From an uncultured Dehalococcoidia bacterium (GTDB lineage Bacteria; Chloroflexota; Dehalococcoidia; Lucifugimonadales; CAZEDC01), in NCBI GenBank assembly GCA_964510985.1, contig CAZEDC010000030.1, positions 1,920-65,919 of the forward strand: a stretch of DNA of 64,000 nucleotides, read 5' to 3'. Of the stretch, positions 4,658-21,142 are shown one piece after another. Each line of letters begins with the position of its first letter. The first letter of the stretch is position 1. The notes under the pieces are model-generated. The model searched no databases. It saw nothing but the letters and a program-made list of their open reading frames with translations, and was not told the origin of the DNA. The position numbers were made by a program, and so were the translations under genes.

Positions 4658-4905
4658 TATTCGTGTTAGAATTTTTCAGCCGCAGGTAGCAACCGATGTA
4701 CGATAGCCCGAGTGTTTTCGGCAGATTAGCCAAGGGGACGGAGAGCCGTACAACCAGGAATTCCGTTCTACCGGGGGTTTGGAGGTATCCTCCCAGTACC
4801 ACTCGAGGGTGGGTGGGCCGGCAAGAGGGTATCTGTAGTTGACGATGTCAACGGAGCCTGATTGTTGTTGATGCCGTCGCGTCCTCACCACAGGTGTCAG
4901 CAGGG

Positions 4906-5682
4906 ATGAGCGATACCGGAGAGAGAAAACACACCTCGCTGGACGTCGTGTTGCCCGTTCTCAACGAAGAGAAGGACCTGCCGCCGAGCGTCGGTAAGCT
5001 GCATGGCTTCCTCTCCGAAAAGTTGGCGGACTATAACTGGCGGATACTCGTCGCCGACAATGGGTCCACGGACTCGACCCCCGATGTCGCAGAAAACCTC
5101 TCTGAGCAGTACGAAGAAGTCGGCTACATACGCCTGGAGCTGCGAGGTAGGGGCCGCGCCCTGGCCCGTGCGTGGCTGGAGAGCGACGCGGACATCGTCT
5201 GCTACATGGATATAGACCTGGCCACCGACCTGGACGGTCTGCCCAAACTGGTGGAGGCGATTCAAGGGCAGGGGTACGACGTGGCAATCGGCTCTCGACT
5301 GGTGCCGGGAGCCCGGGTCATAGCCCGGCCGCTGAAGCGGGAGATTATCTCCCGGATCTACAGCCTTATATTCAGGAGTATGTTTTTTACGGTATTCCGG
5401 GACGCCCAGTGCGGGTTCAAGGCCGTGAGCCGTCGGGCGGCAAACGACCTCGTGCCCCTGGTCCAGGACAAGGGCTGGTTCTTCGACACCGAGCTTCTCA
5501 TCCTGGCGGAGAAGAACGGTTACCGGATCAAAGAGGTGCCGGTGAAGTGGACCGATGACCCGAACAGCCGGGTGCGGATAGCCCGGACAGCCTATGAGGA
5601 CCTGAAAGGGCTGCTGAGGCTTCGCTTCGGTGGGCTCAGAAAGGCGTCCAAGCTCCTGTCCAGCGGGGGGCGGACGGAATGA
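4906..5682 (+). CDS. GT2 glycosyltransferase (polyprenol-phosphate glycosyltransferase-like)
   Basis: VLPVLNEE, DNGSTD, GRGRA, YMDIDL, DAQCGFK, WFFDTELL. Confidence 0.9.
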   Translation: MSDTGERKHTSLDVVLPVLNEEKDLPPSVGKLHGFLSEKLADYNWRILVADNGSTDSTPDVAENLSEQYEEVGYIRLELRGRGRALARAWLESDADIVCYMDIDLATDLDGLPKLVEAIQGQGYDVAIGSRLVPGARVIARPLKREIISRIYSLIFRSMFFTVFRDAQCGFKAVSRRAANDLVPLVQDKGWFFDTELLILAEKNGYRIKEVPVKWTDDPNSRVRIARTAYEDLKGLLRLRFGGLRKASKLLSSGGRTE

Positions 5683-5790
5683 ACGGCCGGGTATTCGGTG
5701 GCCGCTCTGCCCTTGCGGAATGGAGACCTCCGGGGTACCATGTCGATTCCAGAGGGGAGACTCCCGGCCTCCGGCGATACAGGAGTCGAG

Positions 5791-6324
5791 ATGGGCAACG
5801 TCCTACTGGTAATAGACATGTTGGTCGGTTTCCTGGAGCCCGGCCACGACCTCTACTGTGGCGACTACTCGCGTAAGATAATTCCCAATATCAAGCGGCT
5901 GATAGAGGCCGAGCGGGCCATGGGCTCTGAGGTATTCTTCCTCTGCGACGCACACGACCCCGACGACCTGGAGTTCCAGATGTTTCCGGCCCACTGCGTC
6001 AGGGGCACGGAAGAGGCCGAGGTGATCCCGGAGCTGTCCCAGTATGCGGTGGAAAAGATTCAGAAGCGTCGCTACAGCGCCTTCTTTGACACAGACCTAG
6101 AGGCACGGTTGGCAAGACTGAAACCCGACAAGGTAATCGTATGCGGAGTATGCACCGACATCTGCGTGATGCACACGGCGGCTGACGCGAGGAACCGTGA
6201 CTACGAAGTGGAGGTTCCTACGGACTGCGTGGCCACTTTCGATTCGGAGGCCCACCGGTACGCCCTGAAGCACATGGAGGGCATCCTGGGGGCGAGGCTG
6301 GTGAGTACGGCGCGCCCTATTTGA
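5791..6324 (+). CDS. pncA: Nicotinamidase (isochorismatase family)
   Basis: LLVIDM, DAH, PAHC, KRRYSAF, GVCTDICV; RBS AGGAG; directly upstream of pncB. Confidence 0.8.
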   Translation: MGNVLLVIDMLVGFLEPGHDLYCGDYSRKIIPNIKRLIEAERAMGSEVFFLCDAHDPDDLEFQMFPAHCVRGTEEAEVIPELSQYAVEKIQKRRYSAFFDTDLEARLARLKPDKVIVCGVCTDICVMHTAADARNRDYEVEVPTDCVATFDSEAHRYALKHMEGILGARLVSTARPI

Positions 6325-6347
6325 GGGCGAGATTTGGGTGAGAGATC

Positions 6348-7346
6348 ATGGTAAACTCCGAGTTTGAGATACGTCCCTCGACGCTGGTCGGCGACACGGC
6401 CGACGTTTATCTACAGCGGACCCTGACCGTCCTGAGGAACGAGGGAGTGAATCCCACGGCGACCATGGAATTCCGGCCTCAGAGGGACGGGATTTTCTGT
6501 GGGATCAGAGAGGTGCGGGCGCTGCTGTCCAAGGTGCTCCCTGAATCCGGTAGCGAGGTGTGGGCCCTGGATGAAGGCGAGCCTGTGGAAGCCAGAGAGG
6601 TCGCCCTGCGCATAAAGGCGCCTTACGGCTCGTTCGGCCTTTACGAGACGACGATATGTGGGATTTTAGCGTCCTGTGGCGGCTGGGCCATGGCGGCCCG
6701 GGAGTGCGTGGTGGCGGCGAAGGGGATACCCGTGGTCGCTCTGGGAGCCCGACACGTCCATCCCAACGTGGCGGCAAATATCGATTACGCCTCGGTGGTG
6801 GGTGGGTGCGCCTCCTGCTCTACGATCCTGGGCGCCCGGTTGTCGGGAATCACACCGTCCGGTAATATGCCCCACACCCTGCCGCTGCTGCTGGGAGACA
6901 CGGTTAGGGCCGCCCAGGCCTTCGACCGGCATATGCCCCAGGAGGTCCCCCGTGTGGCGCTGGTCGATACCTTCAGGGACGAGGCCGAAGAGGCGCTGGC
7001 CGTAGCCGGTGCGCTCCGGGAGAGGCTCAGAGGGATTCGTCTGGACACGCCGGCTGAACGGGGCGGTGTAACGGCCGATCTTGTAAAAGAGGTCCGGTTG
7101 AGATTGGACCTGGTCGGCTTCCGGCACGTGGAGATATTCGTAAGCGGCGGCTTCACACCGGACCGTATCAGGCGATTCGACGAAGATGGCGCTCCGGTAA
7201 ATGGCTTTGGTGTCGGCAGCTACATATCCAGCGCCCCTCCCAACGACTTCACAGCCGACATTCACGAGATCGACGGCAAACCCATCGCCAAGAGGGGCCG
7301 GACGCCGGGCATTACTCCCAGTCCTCGGCTCGACCGAGTGATGTAA
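6348..7346 (+). CDS. pncB: Nicotinate phosphoribosyltransferase
   Basis: ADVYL, GARHVHP, GNMPH, LVDT, GIRLDTP, IFVSGG, FGVGS, AKRGR. Confidence 0.88.
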   Translation: MVNSEFEIRPSTLVGDTADVYLQRTLTVLRNEGVNPTATMEFRPQRDGIFCGIREVRALLSKVLPESGSEVWALDEGEPVEAREVALRIKAPYGSFGLYETTICGILASCGGWAMAARECVVAAKGIPVVALGARHVHPNVAANIDYASVVGGCASCSTILGARLSGITPSGNMPHTLPLLLGDTVRAAQAFDRHMPQEVPRVALVDTFRDEAEEALAVAGALRERLRGIRLDTPAERGGVTADLVKEVRLRLDLVGFRHVEIFVSGGFTPDRIRRFDEDGAPVNGFGVGSYISSAPPNDFTADIHEIDGKPIAKRGRTPGITPSPRLDRVM

Positions 7347-7473
7347 TTTTCTGACACCGGTCCGGCAGTTCGGATGCTGTTGCGTTCGGCGGGCCGTTAT
7401 ATTCCGTTTTTACAAATTCTCGGCGATCCGCATAATAACCTGGAACGTCGGTTCCAGGAAACGGAAAGCTGTC

Positions 7474-9003
7474 ATGCTCTACCGGCTGGTTATAGCAGTA
7501 ATACGCCTGGCCCTGGTACCCGCGGACCTGCTCCTGGCCTTCGTCGGGCCAAGATACCGTCTGTACTTCTGGGTCCTGAGAGTCACTCCCCCGTCCGCGG
7601 TTGCCTGGCTGGGCAGAATACGGGCCATCCGCGCCTGCGACAACGCGGAGAGGAAGGTCCCGGGGTACCGGGAGTTCCTGAGGGCCCACGGGACCTCTCC
7701 TGCCGAGATTCTCGGCCTGGGCCTGCCCCCCACCGACAAAGGTAACTACGTCGACGTTTACGGCATCGAGGAGAGGTGTCTCAACGGGGTACTCCCCCAC
7801 CGCGATACAGCCATAGACGAGTCGTCAGGCAGCACCGGGACCCCTTACAATTGGATCAGGTCGCTGAACGAGCGGAACTCCAGCCATATATTTATCAGCC
7901 ACTTTGCGCGGTACTGCTTCGGAGAAGAGCCCTGGATCACCATAAACGCATTCTCCATGGGCGCCTGGGCCACCGGCATCAACATGGGAGTCGCATTACA
8001 GCGCAACAGTATCGTCAAGAGCACTGGCCCGGACCTGGAGAAGATATTCAGCACACTCCAGCTTTTCGGCCCCGAGATCCGTTACCTGGTCTGCGGATAC
8101 CCGCCCTTCTTGAAGCATATGATAGACGTGGCACTGGAGCGGCGGTTCCCGTTGGGAACTTACCGCCTGATGGCGCTGCTGGGCGGCGAGGGCAACTCGG
8201 AAGGCCTCAGGGACTACCTTTACAGCCACTTCCAGCCCGTCTACAGCGGATACGGAGCGACCGACGTCGAAATAGGACTGGCCGGCGAGACGCCCATCAG
8301 CCTGGCGTTTCGACGCGAAGCTCGGACCAACCCGGACCTCCGCCGAGCCCTGTTCGGCAGCGATCCACGCCTGCCCATGGTATTCCAGTACAGTCCGTTG
8401 ACGCACCACGTCCAGGTCAACGAGATTGGCGAGCTGATATTTACGATTACACGCCTGAACGTGTTATCCCCGCGTATCATGTACAACATCCACGATGAAG
8501 GCGGAGTCGCAACCTATGCCGAGCTTGGGGCGAAATTTAGCAACGCAGGCCTGAAGCTGGACGGCTTGTCGACGGATGGGGACGCCAGGCCGTTGAGGCT
8601 CCCCTTTTTCTGGGTGTACGGCCGGAAGGACTCAACGGTCAGCGTTATGGGCGCCAACATCTATCCCGAAGATATCGAGCAGTCCCTCTACAACGAGCCG
8701 GAGTTGGCGCGGGTGACGAACTCGTTTTGCCTGAGCCTCCAGGAGGGCGATGGCGGTTCGGTCCGCCCGCTGCTATCCTTCGAGATATCGGGGCATATCA
8801 CGGAAGACCTCCAGTCCGAGTTCGAGGAGCGAATCCCCCAGCGGCTTCTGGCCCTCAACGCCGACTACCGGGAGGCGTCGCGGGAGTACCGAGAGGCCGT
8901 TGCCCCGGTGGTCCGGTTGCACCCGCTGGGCGACGGGCCTTTTGCCGGCGACAGGGCTAAGATCAAGCAGGCGAGGATTTTCCAGCCGGAGAGCGAGAAC
9001 TGA
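7474..9003 (+). CDS. Phenylacetate-CoA ligase-like adenylate-forming enzyme
   Basis: ESSGSTGTP, GYPPFLK, YGATD, YNIHDEG, GRKD, GANIYPEDIE. Confidence 0.8.
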   Translation: MLYRLVIAVIRLALVPADLLLAFVGPRYRLYFWVLRVTPPSAVAWLGRIRAIRACDNAERKVPGYREFLRAHGTSPAEILGLGLPPTDKGNYVDVYGIEERCLNGVLPHRDTAIDESSGSTGTPYNWIRSLNERNSSHIFISHFARYCFGEEPWITINAFSMGAWATGINMGVALQRNSIVKSTGPDLEKIFSTLQLFGPEIRYLVCGYPPFLKHMIDVALERRFPLGTYRLMALLGGEGNSEGLRDYLYSHFQPVYSGYGATDVEIGLAGETPISLAFRREARTNPDLRRALFGSDPRLPMVFQYSPLTHHVQVNEIGELIFTITRLNVLSPRIMYNIHDEGGVATYAELGAKFSNAGLKLDGLSTDGDARPLRLPFFWVYGRKDSTVSVMGANIYPEDIEQSLYNEPELARVTNSFCLSLQEGDGGSVRPLLSFEISGHITEDLQSEFEERIPQRLLALNADYREASREYREAVAPVVRLHPLGDGPFAGDRAKIKQARIFQPESEN

Positions 9004-13115: not shown

Positions 13116-14168
13116 CTACTTGGATTTCTCGGTGGAAGCAACGACCGCCGGCTCGGTCTCCGATTGAGCGGCATCAGGCTCTTCGACTGTGTCTCCCTTG
13201 ATCAGGCGCTCTATCTGCCGGGCTACGTCCTGGTTCTCCCGCAGGAACGCCTTGGAGTTCTCACGCCCCTGGCCGAGCCGGACATCGCCAAAGGAATAGA
13301 AAGAGCCACTCTTGGTCGTTATGCCCATGTCAGCGGACAGGTCGACAAGGTCGCCCTCTTTGCTAATGCCCTCATTGAACATGATGTCGAACTCGGCGAC
13401 ACGGAAGGGCGGCGCGACCTTATTTTTGATGACTCGGGCCCGCACGCGGCTCCCGATTATCTCGGTGCCCTGCTTGATGGACTCGATCCGACGCAGGTCG
13501 ATGCGGACGGAGCTGTAGAACTTCAGTGCCCTGCCCCCCGGGGTCACCTCGGGGTTGCCGAAGAACACCCCCACCTTCTCTCGTAGCTGGTTGATGAAGA
13601 CTACCGAGGTGTTGGAGCGGCTGATGGCCGAAGTCAGCTTGCGGAGGGCCTGGGACATGATCCGGGCCTGTAGTCCGACGTGGGTATCACCCATGTCGCC
13701 CTCCAGCTCGGCCTTTGGAACCAGGGCGGCCACGCTGTCAATAATAACCACATCCAGGGCGCCGCTGCGCACCAGGTACTCGCAGATCTCCAGTCCCTGC
13801 TCGGCGGAATCGGGCTGGGATATCAGAAGCTCATCGACGTTGACGCCGCATTTGCCCGCATAGCTGGGGTCCAGGGCGTGCTCGGCGTCGATGTAGGCGG
13901 CCGTGCCGCCGGCGATCTGGGACTCGGACATGACATGGTAGGCGAGTGTGGACTTGCCCGAGGCCTCGGCGCCGAAGACCTCGGTGACTCGCCCTTTGGG
14001 GATTCCGCCGATCCCCAGAGCCAGGTCCAGAGAGATGGATCCGGTGGGGATGGCCTCGACCCGGGCGCCCTGCATGGCCTGGCCCAGCCGCATGACCGCG
14101 CCGCGGCCGAAGTGGCGGTCGATCTGCCCGATGGCAAGTTCCAGGGCCTTGGCTTTCTCGGTGGTCAT
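13116..14168 (-). CDS. recA: Recombinase A
   Basis: [47 protein letters not shown]. Confidence 0.99.
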
Positions 14169-14366
14169 TTCACTGCTCCGGCCACCCGAGCGGATGGCTG
14201 TACGCTGTTTCAATCTGTCACGCGGCCCGTGTCACCGGTTCCGACGGCTGATTCATCATATCATGGCCGTATTCCCGGTACAAGACCGGTCCCGGTGCAC
14301 GAAACTGCGGTTTTGTACCGGGTCCCGGTTCGGAGTGCGGTCTAATCACCTGCTACGGGCGGCGCC

Positions 14367-14406
14367 ATTCTACCAGGTCTGCACCCATATGTAAACATAT
14401 GTTCTA
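14367..14406 (-). promoter_or_regulatory. recA promoter with LexA (SOS) box
   Basis: Minus strand TAGAAC-ATAT-GTTTA (14392-14406) fits GAAC-N4-GTTY; extended -10 TGgTAGAAT at 14367-14375. Confidence 0.75.
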
Positions 14407-16321: not shown

Positions 16322-16434
16322 AGCATCCTCCTCACTAGGAGCGAGATAGCGGTCTTGCCTTGGATTATTCAGCACGCCCGGTCATGTGGCAAGACCCGGT
16401 CTCTATTTGCACTTCTTTTTCCCCTCGAAATGGT

Positions 16435-16480
16435 TTGACCGGGAGGCTAGAAGGGTAGATAATATAGAACAACAGTACTA
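16435..16480 (+). promoter_or_regulatory. sigma70-type promoter with adjacent putative LexA box
   Basis: TTGACC (16435-16440), 17 nt, GATAAT (16458-16463), then TAGAAC-AACA-GTACTA (16465-16480). Confidence 0.6.
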
Positions 16481-16496
16481 TTTTGGGGGCCGAGGA

Positions 16497-16922
16497 TTGC
16501 ACGGCAGGGTCAAGGCGATGGAACTCTGGCGCCGGCACGAGCTTGCCGTTCCGGTGGACCTGAAACGGCTGGCCGAAGAGCTGGGCCTTCAAGTCACGAC
16601 CTTCCCCTTCCGTGGCCGGATCAATGAGATGATCGTCGGCGGCGTCGTGGGCGTCCGGCCCGGGCTTAGCCGCCCCTGGTTCCGCTGGTATATTCCGCAC
16701 GCCATCGGCCACCACATGCTGCACGTGGGCACCAGCTTCTATCTGGAATCTTGGCAGTGGGTCAGTCATGCCAGGGCCGAGCGACAGGCCGAGGAGTTCG
16801 CCGCATGGCTGCTGAGCGGACCCAACGGTGCGCGGTCAACGGCAACCGAGCTGGGGGTGCCGTTGAAAAAGTACCCGCTGATGCTTGAGGACGGGAATGG
16901 GGTCCAGGGCACGGGGCTGTGA
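16497..16922 (+). CDS. ImmA/IrrE (DUF955) family metallopeptidase-like protein with HAxxH instead of HExxH
   Basis: PVDLKRLAEELG, HAIGHHMLH, AERQAEEFAAWLL; start is TTG 16497 or ATG 16518. Confidence 0.8.
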   Translation: MHGRVKAMELWRRHELAVPVDLKRLAEELGLQVTTFPFRGRINEMIVGGVVGVRPGLSRPWFRWYIPHAIGHHMLHVGTSFYLESWQWVSHARAERQAEEFAAWLLSGPNGARSTATELGVPLKKYPLMLEDGNGVQGTGL

Positions 16923-16946
16923 TTAGCCGGCCTGTACCCGAGGGTT

Positions 16947-17315
16947 TTATTCCCCGGCCCCGCGCCTGGTCTTGACGTAGCGGGCGTAGTCTCGGACGGA
17001 CTCCCACTCCTCGTCGGTCAGGTCCTCGATCTCGTTGAGCCGCGCAAGCTGCCCCTCGCCCATGGGGCTCTCGAACTCCTCCGGGGTGATGTAGCCCACC
17101 TCTACGGCCAGTCTGCCGTAGGACAGACCCAGCGCTGAGGACAGCGCCTTCAGCGTCTCCACTGTGGGCCTGAAACGCCCGCTCTCCAGGTGGCCAACAT
17201 ACCCCTGGCTCATCCCCAGCGCCCGTGACAGGTGGCGCTGCGACATGCCCTTCGATCTTCGCGCGCGCCTCACTAGGAACGCCATTGTAGTGAACGGGCG
17301 GTCCGGTGTAGTCAT
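16947..17315 (-). CDS. XRE-family HTH transcriptional regulator
   Basis: RRARRSKGMSQRHLSRALGMSQGYVGHLESGRFRPTVETL. Confidence 0.9.
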   Translation of the reverse strand: MTTPDRPFTTMAFLVRRARRSKGMSQRHLSRALGMSQGYVGHLESGRFRPTVETLKALSSALGLSYGRLAVEVGYITPEEFESPMGEGQLARLNEIEDLTDEEWESVRDYARYVKTRRGAGE

Positions 17316-17542
17316 GGCGTACTCTCGATCTACTGCCTCGGGCGCCGATCCGGTTTTGTCACCTTCATTGTAGCGGAAAGGCGGGGAGGGCGTGGTAAAA
17401 TACCTTCGACAGGCCGATCCTTGCGGCCCCCGGCATACGGGGAGCCGTCGGGTTTGGCCCTTTCGACGTTGGGGCGGGAAGCAGAAAAATCCCGTGTCGG
17501 CGCAGATCTTATATAGATGGTTAGATGTCGGTGGGAGAAAAA

Positions 17543-20500
17543 ATGGACCTGAAAGAGCTAGGCGGACTACTGGAGACTCTCCCTCAGTTCAAAGGCTTAT
17601 GCGACGCGGTTCGGGGCCCATACGCCCGGGCCCGAGTCCAGGTGCTGCCCGCAGCAGTACCCTTCACCCTGGCCGCTCTTCGGCGTGTATCCCAGCTTCC
17701 CATGCTGGTGCTCACTCCCCGCCCTGATGACGCCAGACAGCTTTACGAGCAGCTTATTCTCTGGAGCGATCCGGAAGCGTCGGTCCTCCATTTCCCGGAA
17801 ACCGAGACGCTGCCCTTCGAGCGGCTGGCGTCGGACGTTGAAACGACGCATCAGCGGCTACATACACTGTCGGCCCTGGTCGAGGGCGAGGGCGGCGCAC
17901 CGATCATCGTCGCATCCACCTCGGCGGTGACTCAGAAGACGATATCAAGAGACCTCTTTGAGTCCGGCAGCCACGCGTTGGGTCGGGGGCAGAACGTAGA
18001 CCTGGACGAGCTATTGGACCGGTGGCGGCGCATGGGCTACGGGTTCGAGCCGACCGTCTACGCCCCCGGATTCGCCAGCAGACGGGGCGGCATCCTGGAT
18101 ATCTATCCCGTGGGGTCGCCGTTGCCGGCCCGCATCGAACTCTGGGGCAACGAGATCGATAGCATCAGGCTGTTCGACCCCGTAACACAGCGCTCCAGCG
18201 ACACCGTGGACTCTATCCGGGTCGGCCCGGCCCGAGAGGCGGTGCCCGCGATGATCGACCGGGACCAGATGGACGAGCTGCTAGGCAGGTTGGACATGAC
18301 AAACTGTGACGGCGCGACCCGGGACCGCATCAACGAAGAGCTCGGACTCCTCCTGGACGGATACGAAGTGGAGGAGTTGAGCTTCTACTCCGGTCTGTTT
18401 AACCAGGGCACGCTTTTGGATTATCTCCCGACGGACGGGATCTATGTCTTTCACCAGCCGCTGGAGATCACGGAGGCCGCCCGGGAGTCCGAGGAGCGTA
18501 CCGACAACCTGCGCCGGGTTAAAGAACAGCGGGGCGAGCTACCGCGGGACTTCCCGTCTTCCCATCTCCTCTGGGAGGAGGCGAAGGGGCGAATGGGAGC
18601 AAAGGAGGGACGGCTGGACATCGTGTCGTGGGGAGCCAAAGAGCTGGACGACCTGGGCACGGATGTCCTGCCATTCACCTCGACCCCGACCTTTCTGGGC
18701 AAGCTGGACAGCTTCGTCGCCGAGGCTGACGAGCTGACCAAAGAGGGCCATCGCGTGATCGCCGTCACGTCCCACTCCAGGCGGCTGGGTGAAATTCTGG
18801 CCGATTACGGTGTTGGGGCCGACCTGCCGGCATCATTGGATGCTCCACCCCCGGCCGGCTCCATCACCGTGCTCCAGTCGGAGGGGACCGGGCTGAACTC
18901 CGGGTTCATCTTCTCAGCCCAGGGCCGGCGGTTGGCGGTCTTCAGCGACACCGAGATCTTCGGCGTAACCAAGCAGCGCCGGGGCACCCGTCGGGTCGCG
19001 GCCAGACGCCAGGACCTGCTGTCGGAACTGTCGCCGGGCGACTACGTGGTGCACGTCGAACACGGCATCGGCAGGTTCGCAGGGACCGGCCCCATGGACG
19101 GCGACGATAACGGCACCGAGTACCTGACTCTCCACTACTCGCAGGGAGACAAGCTGTACGTGCCCATGGAGCATCTGGACCGGGTGACGCCGTACCTGGC
19201 CCCCATGGACCGGCCACCGTCCCTGACACGGCTGGGCACCCAGGAGTGGAAGCGCACAAAGGCGCGGGTGGAGCGCTCGACCAGAGAGATGGCTTCGGAG
19301 CTTCTCTCTCTCTACGCCGCTCGAGAGCTGGTGGAGGGGCACTCCCTCAAGCCGGACACGCCGTGGCAGGCCGAGTTGGAGGAGTCATTCCCTCACGAGG
19401 AGACGCCGGACCAGATTGCGACCATCGCCGAGGTCAAGGCCGACATGGAGGCCGACAAGCCCATGGACCGGCTGGTATGCGGCGACGTGGGCTACGGCAA
19501 GACCGAGATAGCCCTGCGGACCGCCTTCAAGACGGTCATGGACGGGCGGCAGGTGGCCGTCCTGGTCCCGACCACGGTGCTGGCCCAGCAGCACTACGTG
19601 ACCTTCTCGCAGCGCCTCAGCGCCTTCCCCACCAGGGTCGATGTGCTGAGCCGTTTCCGGACCGACCATGACCAGAGGGAGATCGTGGAGGCCCTGGGCA
19701 GCGGGCAGGTGGACATCTGCATCGGCACCCACCGGCTGATCCAGAGGGACGTCCGCTTCAAAAATTTGGGGTTGGTGATTATCGATGAGGAACAGCGGTT
19801 CGGAGTGGCCCACAAGGAGCGGCTCAAGCAGATGCGCCGCGAGGTGGACGTGCTCACGCTGACCGCCACGCCCATACCACGGACGCTGCACCTCTCCCTG
19901 GCCGGGGTCCGCGATATGAGCACTATGGAGACGCATCCGGAGGAGCGCCTGCCCATCAAGACCTATGTATCGGAGTTCAGCGACGAGCTGATCAGAGAGA
20001 CTATCCTGCGGGAGTTGGACCGGCAGGGCCAGGTGTATTTCCTGCACAACCGCGTGTACAACATCGATTACATGGCCGGATACATCCGGCGGATAGTACC
20101 GGAAGCCAGGGTGGGCGTCGCCCATGGCCAGATGCCCGAGGGCCAGCTGGAGCGTGCGATGCTGGATTTTTCCCTGGGCAAGATGGACGTGCTGCTGTGC
20201 ACGACGATCATCGAGTCCGGCCTGGACATCCCCAACGTGAACACGCTAATTGTCAACCGAGCCGACACTTTCGGTCTGGCGCAGCTCTACCAGCTCCGCG
20301 GCAGGGTGGGCCGCAGCGCCCGCCGGGCATACGCCTACCTGCTGATACCCAAGGCCAGGGCGCTGACCGATGCCGCACAGAGGAGGCTCAGGGCCATGCT
20401 GGCGGCCACCGAGTTGGGGGCGGGGTTCCGGATCGCCATGAAGGACCTGGAGATCCGCGGCGCAGGCAACATCCTGGGCTCGGAACAGAGCGGCCAGATA

Positions 20501-21142
20501 CACGCCGTCGGCTTCGACCTGTACACCCGGCTCCTGTCCTATGCGGTGGAGGAGCTGCGGGCCCGCAAGGTCCTAGAGGGGGCCGGACAGCCTGTCGATG
20601 CGGAAGAGCCCTCGCCGGATGGCGTAAACCAGCTCGTCGAGCCCGAGGAACTGGATGAGGCCATGGCCCCGGAGGCCGGGGTCACCGTGGACCTGGGCAT
20701 CCCGGCCAGCATCCCCCAGGATTATGTCTCGGACATGCCGACCAGGCTGGGTATCTATCAGCGGGTGGTCCAGCTTGCCGACCTTCACGCGGTGGACGAG
20801 ATGAAAGACGAGTTCGAGGACCGGTTCGGACCCCTGCCCTGGCAGGCCCAGAACCTGCTGTACGTTATCGGGTTGAAGCTGCGGGCCAGGCGGGCTGGGA
20901 TAGAGTCCATAACCAGAGTGGACGAGCAGATAGTGCTGTGGCTCAAGGACGGGGTCGGAGGGGCCAGGCCCGCGCTACAGCGTGTACTAGGGCGCAAGGT
21001 CGCGGTGGGCGACACGCAGATACGGATAACCGACGGCCGCCGCCCCGGAGGATGGGAGGATCTGCTTGTGAGCACGGTGGAAAAGCTGGCCGAGTTCAGG
21101 GAGCGACTGGAAGCCGGGGTCGAAGCAGTGGTGGGTTCGTGA
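17543..21142 (+). CDS. mfd: Transcription-repair coupling factor
   Basis: RGGILDIYP, GDYVVHVEHGIG, CGDVGYGKTE, IDEEQRFG, TATPIPRT, QLRGRVGR, DLEIRGAGN. Confidence 0.98.
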   Translation: MDLKELGGLLETLPQFKGLCDAVRGPYARARVQVLPAAVPFTLAALRRVSQLPMLVLTPRPDDARQLYEQLILWSDPEASVLHFPETETLPFERLASDVETTHQRLHTLSALVEGEGGAPIIVASTSAVTQKTISRDLFESGSHALGRGQNVDLDELLDRWRRMGYGFEPTVYAPGFASRRGGILDIYPVGSPLPARIELWGNEIDSIRLFDPVTQRSSDTVDSIRVGPAREAVPAMIDRDQMDELLGRLDMTNCDGATRDRINEELGLLLDGYEVEELSFYSGLFNQGTLLDYLPTDGIYVFHQPLEITEAARESEERTDNLRRVKEQRGELPRDFPSSHLLWEEAKGRMGAKEGRLDIVSWGAKELDDLGTDVLPFTSTPTFLGKLDSFVAEADELTKEGHRVIAVTSHSRRLGEILADYGVGADLPASLDAPPPAGSITVLQSEGTGLNSGFIFSAQGRRLAVFSDTEIFGVTKQRRGTRRVAARRQDLLSELSPGDYVVHVEHGIGRFAGTGPMDGDDNGTEYLTLHYSQGDKLYVPMEHLDRVTPYLAPMDRPPSLTRLGTQEWKRTKARVERSTREMASELLSLYAARELVEGHSLKPDTPWQAELEESFPHEETPDQIATIAEVKADMEADKPMDRLVCGDVGYGKTEIALRTAFKTVMDGRQVAVLVPTTVLAQQHYVTFSQRLSAFPTRVDVLSRFRTDHDQREIVEALGSGQVDICIGTHRLIQRDVRFKNLGLVIIDEEQRFGVAHKERLKQMRREVDVLTLTATPIPRTLHLSLAGVRDMSTMETHPEERLPIKTYVSEFSDELIRETILRELDRQGQVYFLHNRVYNIDYMAGYIRRIVPEARVGVAHGQMPEGQLERAMLDFSLGKMDVLLCTTIIESGLDIPNVNTLIVNRADTFGLAQLYQLRGRVGRSARRAYAYLLIPKARALTDAAQRRLRAMLAATELGAGFRIAMKDLEIRGAGNILGSEQSGQIHAVGFDLYTRLLSYAVEELRARKVLEGAGQPVDAEEPSPDGVNQLVEPEELDEAMAPEAGVTVDLGIPASIPQDYVSDMPTRLGIYQRVVQLADLHAVDEMKDEFEDRFGPLPWQAQNLLYVIGLKLRARRAGIESITRVDEQIVLWLKDGVGGARPALQRVLGRKVAVGDTQIRITDGRRPGGWEDLLVSTVEKLAEFRERLEAGVEAVVGS

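Follow-up and report, generated by a model that had tools for sequence, protein, structure and literature searches.

The subject of this analysis is a pair of genes lying between recA and mfd in a 64-kb stretch of DNA (here called the window), a housekeeping region of a metagenome-assembled genome of Dehalococcoidia, phylum Chloroflexota (the phylum being taken from the record titles of related loci). One gene encodes an M78-like protein with the ImmA/IrrE/CapP fold that lacks the catalytic glutamate, and the other, convergent with it, encodes an XRE-family repressor. Comparison with related genomes points to the pair being the immunity switch of a phage-derived element, orphaned here and wired to the SOS response, a reading to which we assign a probability of about 0.6. 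In the proposed mechanism, LexA bound to an operator directly behind the -10 element of the M78-like gene (positions 16465 to 16480), a site recognized by comparison, would keep that gene off; DNA damage would remove LexA and allow the M78-like protein to be made, and the protein would then inactivate the neighboring XRE repressor through the conserved C-terminal helical tail of the latter. Inactivation could proceed by cleavage at a remodeled metal site, which is slightly favored, or by binding, for which the Rir/Crh pair is a precedent. Because no terminator-like site was found between the two convergent genes, whose stop codons are 24 nt apart, induced transcription would probably also run antisense into the XRE gene and may interfere with its expression.

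ImmA/IrrE/CapP-type proteases are the standard route by which XRE repressors that are unable to cleave themselves are removed after stress. Both M78/XRE pairs and SOS-controlled antirepressors acting on phage-type repressors are already known. What is new in the sequence comparison is a multiphylum clade of M78 proteins without the catalytic Glu, marked by a reciprocal Glu/Gly swap; also apparently new are an M78-like gene wired directly to LexA in Dehalococcoidia and the survival of the pair without cargo. The clade matters for annotation, as its members are now labeled "Zn-dependent peptidase ImmA" or "hypothetical" despite the missing textbook Glu, and for mechanism, as a kept metal site with a Glu gained elsewhere bears on the choice between cleavage and binding. 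The pair also bears on SOS wiring in uncultured Dehalococcoidia, where LexA control appears to extend to a phage-type antirepressor and, within a sister group, to a zinc-ribbon/LigD unit, and it offers a case of regulators outliving decayed phage-like cargo.

The operator of the M78-like gene

A preliminary description of this DNA had noted a TTGACC-17-GATAAT promoter followed immediately by TAGAAC-AACA-GTACTA, and these letters were confirmed at positions 16435 to 16480. The promoter has its -35 element TTGACC at 16435 to 16440 and its -10 element GATAAT at 16458 to 16463, separated by a spacer of 17 nt, and agrees with 10 of the 12 consensus positions in a promoter consensus scan that returned three promoter-like sites between positions 14000 and 17700 against 0.9 expected. 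When scored with a matrix built only from 21 distinct boxes of relatives (several of the loci being near-duplicates), the box behind the promoter, TAGAACAACAGTACTA, is the top match in the whole window, at 18.2 bits, followed by a next best site at 11.8 bits. The sequence TAGAACNNNNGT occurs four times in the window (0.8 expected; none of 100 shuffles reached four), once upstream of recA, once upstream of the M78-like gene and twice inside genes.

Conservation of the operator was examined in 80 genome loci retrieved with the peptides ERQAEEFA and WFRWYV[AS]H, a choice that makes the conservation of ERQAEEFA in this set partly a matter of ascertainment. Within 150 nt upstream of the M78-like gene, 24 of the 27 closest loci carry a box that departs from AGAAC-N4-GTTCT at two positions or fewer, as does 1 of the 53 others, against 0.034 expected per 170 nt. 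In those 24 close loci the box takes the form AG[ACT]AC-N4-GTTCT and accompanies a TTGACA-17-TAnAAT promoter, and orthologs keep the whole architecture of promoter, box, ribosome-binding site and TTG start while the flanking sequence diverges.

The comparison identifies the motif as the LexA operator of this order and not as an operator of the XRE protein. It resembles GAAC-N4-GTTC, the LexA box of Gram-positive bacteria and Dehalococcoides. The top match of the matrix lies 40 to 55 nt upstream of lexA in three of five complete relatives (14.2 to 19.6 bits), with weaker variants in the other two, and sites are also found upstream of recA in two related loci (L004 and L007). In same-order genomes that lack the pair, seven of eight carry the motif upstream of lexA, just behind a TTGACA promoter, at 13.3 to 21.1 bits, where the 99th percentile of the background is 9.0 bits; in the eighth, the scanned lexA region was probably mis-set inside coding sequence. 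Because the motif precedes lexA in genomes without the pair, LexA rather than the XRE protein is taken to be its binder. The core that the preliminary description had seen both here and in the recA box is thus shared with the lexA and recA operators of relatives and conserved in orthologs.

A second, divergent promoter-like site, TTGCCA-17-AATAAT at 16364 to 16392 on the minus strand, serves the glyoxalase-like gene and lies 43 nt from the -35 element of the M78-like gene. A closely related strain, represented by contigs from the RNA libraries of runs X1 and X3, reads GATAAT-A-CAGAACAACTGTACTG over window positions 16407 to 16486, with the -10 element unchanged and both half-sites altered at their outer bases only. 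In two loci that are the two ends of one contig (L018 and L019), the M78-like gene is preceded by a tandem duplicate of the promoter and box (AGAACAGTCGTTCT), with 85 nt between the copies' positions (about 3885 to 3985 in L018).

The M78-like protein and its predicted metal site

The fold and profile evidence identifies the M78-like protein as a single-domain member of the ImmA/IrrE/CapP fold family that keeps a predicted His-His-Glu metal site. It is 141 amino acids (aa) long from TTG 16497 or 134 aa from ATG 16518; the TTG is probably the start, since orthologs conserve TTGCACGGC, and residues are numbered here from the ATG. The AlphaFold2 (AF2) model, for which 33 homologs were aligned, has a mean predicted local distance difference test score (pLDDT) of 83.3. 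Its best structural match is CapP (7t5t; Z 12.3, root mean square deviation 2.6 over 119 of 134 residues, 24% identity), followed by IrrE/PprI (Z 8.8 to 9.3) and Mycobacterium tuberculosis PrpR (Z about 9), and the next family scores Z 5.1. Foldseek matched the model with a probability of 1.00 and template modeling scores of 0.60 to 0.65, and the PHROGs family phrog_87, "metallo-protease," was matched with an E value of 4.7e-8. In a family profile alignment, AHAIGH falls on AHELGH and ERQAEEFA on EAQADLFA of CapP, with a weak E value of 0.82. The predicted ligands H61, H65 and E88 are invariant and align to the motifs of CapP and canonical M78 proteins, in keeping with the earlier assignment of the protein as DUF955-like, with HAIGH retaining the His/His/Glu ligands and an Ala replacing the catalytic Glu.

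The loss of this Glu is a trait of the family. Among 120 listed homologs (60 to 99% identical), tallied by eye from the list of H-x3-H motifs, the motif begins with HA in 112, HG in 7, HS in 1 and HE in none. H[A/G/S]xGH was found in 78 of the 80 genome loci, at identities down to 31%; no motif was found in the remaining 2, and HExxH occurs in none of the 78 that could be scored. A profile search of 1.84 billion representative sequences returned 467 proteins at an E value of 1e-3 or lower, and in the best 150 of the 467 the residue after the first His is Ala in 76, Gly in 34 and Glu in 8. Decay of HExxH specific to this strain is ruled out by the Glu-less motif across homologs, loci and representatives. 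Among the publications in the matches listed, none was relevant to Glu-less or inactive COG2856/DUF955 proteins.

A Glu elsewhere in the sequence sets the Glu-less proteins apart. Position 37, within the motif GRINE, is Glu in 86 and Asp in 5 of 92 Glu-less representatives; in 10 relatives with HExxH it is Gly in 7, Ser in 1, Ala in 1 and Glu in 1, this single Glu coming from a row that aligns poorly. Otherwise the alignment at this position is secure because the GR[IV]x context is common to both groups. In 12 canonical HExxH M78 domains from same-order genomes, aligned with a hidden Markov model, position 37 is Gly in 4, Ala in 4, Ser in 1, Glu in 2 (both in rows that adjoin large insertions) and a gap in 1, and all four Glu-less proteins in that comparison set have Glu. 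A distant Glu-less subfamily belongs to "Candidatus Daviesbacteria," and "Candidatus Aquicultor" has a further relative; members of the Daviesbacteria-type subfamily, which carry the two database labels given above, have E37, H61, A62, H65 and E88 together in 68 of 72 proteins. Position 62, where the catalytic Glu would stand, is Ala in 55 of the 92 Glu-less representatives, Gly in 28, Cys in 3, Ser in 2, Val in 2, Thr in 1 and Met in 1. One protein of the Daviesbacteria-type subfamily (P0270, a relative of P0156) has HEQGH as well as the strand Glu; it may have reverted naturally or may represent an intermediate that bears both carboxylates.

The reciprocal Glu/Gly swap suggests that the carboxylate was relocated from the HExxH helix to the GRIxE strand motif. 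In thermolysin-like zincins, the next-to-last strand ahead of the active-site helix makes up the cleft's upper rim. By analogy, a Glu on the rim strand could come within reach of the metal or of the water bound to it. The pattern at positions 37 and 62 argues against a site that is simply dead; that the site is remodeled but still works, depends on metal and cuts the XRE tail appears about as likely as not, with a slight lean toward it.

The XRE partner, phage-type cargo and alternative readings

The XRE repressor is a conserved companion of the M78-like protein. It is adjacent in 63 of the 80 loci, which bears out the linkage that had been noted from this one sequence: 35 loci, from closer relatives, have the genes convergent, and 28, from more distant ones, have the XRE gene upstream and codirectional, as in immR-immA. 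The recognition helix differs between the two arrangements, and the tail (LARL.E..DL..EW..V..FARYV.S.R) is nearly invariant between them. The AF2 model shows a five-helix helix-turn-helix domain followed by helices at residues 78 to 82, 87 to 98 and 101 to 119 at lower confidence. In DdrO-type XRE proteins, according to the available portion of PMC6868357, the regulatory region lies within the loop that joins the final two helices; the acidic stretch E-I-E-D-L-T-D-E-E is its likely counterpart here by analogy. Searched against the Protein Data Bank, the XRE profile has its best sequence match in 8bny (E 7e-10), an "immunity repressor protein" with a similar ...L.D.TGLTE... tail motif, and 7t5u, a CapH-type partner, is also among the matches; the sole paper citing 8bny deals, in the portion available, with the Rco repressor of plasmid pLS20. 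No operator of the XRE protein could be defined from sequence comparison; the closest candidates for its control here are the promoter of the XRE gene itself and mfd. In relatives, the element GAACATATGTGTCAAT between the XRE and zinc-ribbon genes overlaps the zinc-ribbon -35 element and looks like a weak LexA box, but the window does not contain it.

In some related genomes, genes of a phage-type element surround the pair. In 30 convergent loci, the XRE gene is divergent from a gene of about 93 codons encoding a double zinc-ribbon protein, and across the 80 loci a terminase and/or portal gene lies within 4 kb in 15 and LigD in 9. Seven convergent loci have the terminase large subunit and portal genes behind the zinc-ribbon gene; in seven codirectional loci a terminase gene, accompanied by a portal gene in four of them, lies on the far side of the XRE gene and on the opposite strand, and one further locus has a portal gene only. 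In one complete genome (G004) the cluster runs from terminase and portal genes through an insertion sequence transposase gene to those for the head maturation protease and the major head protein, and another genome has a partial portal gene followed by ordinary genes. In the subgroup with HGIGH, the zinc-ribbon gene is followed directly by the gene for LigD, the nonhomologous end-joining ligase, in nine loci, one of them partial; the arrangement was noted at about 4750 to 8300 in each of L028 to L034 and L038. A LexA-like box, AGAACAATTGTGCG, lies upstream of the XRE gene toward the zinc-ribbon gene in five HGIGH loci, and this arrangement may be a damage-controlled LigD unit.

Distribution of the pair is patchy: it occurs in 17 of 80 other same-order genomes and, in several genera, in one of two. 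Neighborhoods vary widely between genomes. In one locus a DNA methylase gene adjoins recA (L007, 954 to 1709), and in another an XcyI-type restriction endonuclease gene lies near the module (L021, 5677 to 6618). Relatives in cultured phages were not found by tblastn at E values up to 1e-3, and a search of IMG/VR viral contigs, limited to two peptide patterns, returned none. The sequence comparison is most simply explained by an old element of phage origin that has decayed to differing degrees and of which the two regulators would persist here. The preliminary description had remarked that no phage genes lie near the pair and had suggested domestication; the scanned neighbors in the window are indeed all housekeeping genes, with no phage structural or integration genes beside the pair, and domestication holds only if it means a phage-type switch left orphaned, since among relatives the pair is flanked by terminase, portal, capsid or LigD genes. 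Of the second-tier DNA-damage circuit that it proposed, LexA control is supported by the operator comparison, but a place for the pair as a core second tier of the SOS response was not borne out, given the presence of the pair in so few same-order genomes and the phage-type or LigD neighbors of its relatives.

Several observations weigh against the reading of the pair as an orphaned, LexA-controlled switch. No lexA gene was found in the assembly that carries the window (G000): the sole match to LexA_DNA_bind is HrcA (contig C69), the S24 matches are below the cutoff, and tblastn with the LexA of a relative gave only E values above 5. Of 20 same-order relatives 18 have the gene, as do all five complete genomes that carry the pair, and its absence here is probably an assembly gap, since the assembly, at 92% completeness, is split into 185 contigs. 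The box at recA is a moderate match only in this genome (9.3 bits against a background 99th percentile of 9.0 bits per 400 nt), and the strongest other box matches in the assembly fall in a promoter-plus-hairpin element present in five copies. No zinc-ribbon, terminase or portal gene was found in the window or in the rest of the assembly. The Pfam Peptidase_M78 match (PF06114) of the M78-like protein is weak (E 0.016; 15.4 bits, under the 22-bit cutoff), so that the family assignment rests on the fold and profile evidence; no NCBIfam model matched the protein, and some homologs carry a precomputed PF06114 match. The Glu swap was possibly one ancient event, in which case the counts are not independent. 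Finally, parts of the M78-like gene were found at low depth in RNA-library contigs of four runs from three studies, and the XRE gene in one, but one such contig also carries the promoter, so that these contigs show neither transcription nor a start site.

The five-copy element is a unit of about 65 bp (C38:5305, C54:15136, C98:1673, C124:7411 and C9:1559; loci L093 to L097) in which CTTGAC(A) is followed by a box of the form yAGAACA-N2-CGTGCTA fused to a TATAAT or TATTAT -10 element and, 8 to 10 nt later, by a GC-rich hairpin with a T6 run. It has no match in Rfam and could represent SOS-controlled tiny transcripts, attenuators or the ends of a repeat element. Elsewhere in the assembly (C4:315-1462), a near-perfect box, TAGAACGTATGTACTA, stands right after TTGACA, about 230 nt ahead of an open reading frame judged by eye to be DprA/Smf-like. 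A genome-wide survey of the genes behind the best boxes in the assembly returned this gene and the five-copy element and no clear SOS regulon.

On one alternative reading, the M78-like protein would be a pure pseudo-protease that has lost catalysis and keeps the metal site for stability only, induced through LexA as a stoichiometric antirepressor that binds the XRE tail and blocks oligomerization or DNA binding. This would fit the absence of the catalytic Glu from every close homolog and an XRE tail conserved like an interface. The M78 fold is used without proteolysis in M. tuberculosis PrpR, which the present model matches. A noncleaving COG2856 protein is described for the Rir/Crh pair in the available text of PMC6868357. 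Dead enzymes usually relax around the old site, however, and here both His residues, E88 and E37 are nearly invariant across phyla; the swap of E37 with the Gly of HExxH relatives is reciprocal, and position 62 is almost always small, as would fit room for another side chain. We regard a pure pseudo-protease as a possibility with the odds somewhat against it.

The remaining alternatives concern how the pair is wired. A LexA-independent circuit like that of DdrO/IrrE, in which the XRE protein would bind the TAGAAC-N4-GTNCTA boxes at recA and the M78-like gene and be relieved by the M78-like protein, would explain why no lexA gene was found in the assembly, and the pair does adjoin recA here as well as in L004 and L007. 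In such a system the XRE protein recognizes the repair-gene motif, but the occurrence of that motif behind the lexA promoter in seven of eight same-order genomes without the pair rules out the XRE protein as its binder; moreover, lexA is widespread among the relatives, the motif matches the known LexA box, and the subgroup with HG has nearly the same XRE recognition helix yet no box upstream of the M78-like gene. Such a circuit is very improbable. Scarcely more probable is a type II toxin-antitoxin-like cassette, with the XRE protein as antitoxin and the COG2856 protein as toxin, that would form a selfish or stress module apart from any phage switch. XRE/COG2856 pairs are classed as toxin-antitoxin-like mobile stress modules in the available portions of PMC2701414 and PMC10538038, and the pair stands alone here with a patchy distribution. 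The type II arrangement is a single autoregulated operon, however, and the two genes here are convergent, have separate promoters, one with an SOS operator, and are not cotranscribed; the XRE genes of relatives are divergent from terminase, portal and capsid genes, as immunity repressor genes are.

Beyond the orphaned switch itself, it is possible, though rather doubtful as a whole, that Glu-less M78 proteins form a "Glu-swapped" clade across Chloroflexota, Patescibacteria and Actinomycetota in which the general-base carboxylate has moved from the HExxH helix to the rim strand and a remodeled zinc site cuts or specifically clamps the XRE tail, and that this switch was rewired to LexA in Dehalococcoidia, outlives its phage-like cargo and is reused for damage control of host genes such as LigD.

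The gene order around the pair, including the flanking recA and mfd genes and the convergent XRE gene, is as first described. The recX, recA, DinB-family, GNAT and glyoxalase-like genes lie on the minus strand, the last three of them between recA and the M78-like gene; next come the M78-like gene on the plus strand, the XRE gene on the minus strand and, on the plus strand again, mfd. Downstream of mfd are genes for a HAD hydrolase and a PurM-like protein and the nuo operon. Features of the region are collected in Table 1.

Table 1. Positions in the window of the M78-like/XRE pair, its control elements and flanking genes
Feature	Position	Strand	Basis or remark
recA	13116..14213	-	Pfam RecA, E 3.2e-128
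recA SOS-type box, TAGAACATATGTTTAC	14391..14406	-	Overlaps -35 element of TTTACA-17-TAGAAT promoter; 9.3 bits
Sigma-70-type promoter of M78-like gene, TTGACC-17-GATAAT	16435..16463	+	Sequence; TTGACA-17-TAnAAT architecture in orthologous loci
LexA-type operator, TAGAACAACAGTACTA (TAGAAC-AACA-GTACTA)	16465..16480	+	Starts one base past the -10 element; matrix score and conservation
M78 protein (ImmA/IrrE/CapP fold), Glu-less clade	16497..16922	+	AF2 model, structure matches, phrog_87, conserved start
E37 codon, motif GRINE	16626..16628	+	Glu specific to the Glu-less clade
HAIGH (residues 61 to 65)	16698..16712	+	Both His ligands kept, Ala at the catalytic Glu; aligns with AHELGH of CapP
ERQAEEFA (residues 88 to 95)	16779..16802	+	E88 is the predicted third-ligand Glu of E-x-x-A-x-x-F-A
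XRE-family repressor, 122 aa	16947..17315	-	Pfam HTH_3, E 2.3e-14; PHROG transcriptional repressor/regulator families; AF2 pLDDT 82.6
XRE C-terminal tail (residues 75 to 118), LARL.E..DL..EW..V..FARYV	16962..17093	-	Likely contact or target of the M78-like protein
Putative -10 element of XRE gene (CTACAAT)	17367..17373	-	Proposed from its position; many relatives have CTACAAT equally far upstream of XRE
mfd	17525..21142	+	Flanks the pair on the far side from recA

Comparison with known systems

The closest parallels in layout are ImmA/ImmR of the Bacillus subtilis element ICEBs1 and XkdA/Xre of PBSX, which likewise combine a short, single-domain M78 protein with an XRE protein bearing a helical C-terminal tail. 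As with ImmA/ImmR, the distant relatives of the present pair show the XRE gene followed by the M78 gene, divergent from the genes of the element, with terminase and portal genes following the switch; the gene order of PBSX resembles that of these relatives. ImmA is regulated through its activity and is not known to be under LexA control. The present pair differs from ImmA/ImmR in having HAIGH in place of HExxH, a Glu at position 37, convergent genes, a LexA-type operator at the M78-like gene and no mobile-element genes left.

CapP of the cyclic-oligonucleotide-based antiphage signaling systems (CBASS) is the best structural match, and its partner CapH is also an XRE-type helix-turn-helix protein. 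CapP senses DNA damage. Unlike the present protein, it carries HExxH together with a further C-terminal region, its solved chain having 278 residues, and no CBASS genes were found in the window. IrrE (PprI)/DdrO of Deinococcus shares with the present pair the fold, the XRE partner and a link to DNA damage, here underlined by the position of the pair next to recA. IrrE, however, has an extra GAF-like domain and HExxH and acts independently of LexA, and DdrO itself binds the regulon motif, whereas the motif here appears to be that of LexA and the M78-like protein has a single domain. The ImmA/ImmR and IrrE/DdrO precedents are both described in the available portion of PMC6868357.

A binding-type mechanism, as the preliminary description proposed for the present pair, has a precedent in the Rir/Crh pair of Streptococcus thermophilus phage TP-J34, in which a COG2856 protein is reported to inactivate its XRE repressor without cleavage by blocking oligomerization (PMC6868357, in the portion available). 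Rir differs from the present protein in keeping HEXXH and in belonging to an active temperate phage, and LexA control is not mentioned in that portion of the paper.

In its proposed wiring the pair resembles systems in which the SOS response makes or activates an antirepressor against a phage-type repressor that is unable to cleave itself. Tum of coliphage 186 is an SOS-controlled antirepressor of this kind. Antirepressors under LexA control are also described for the Gifsy phages in the available text of PMC3121763; unlike the present protein, the antirepressors of Gifsy and 186 fall outside the M78 family. The Listeria monocin protein MpaR, by the account in the available portion of PMC6872733, is an SOS-activated M78 protein with an intact metal-binding motif that cleaves its repressors, in contrast to the present protein, which reads HAIGH and lacks the catalytic Glu.

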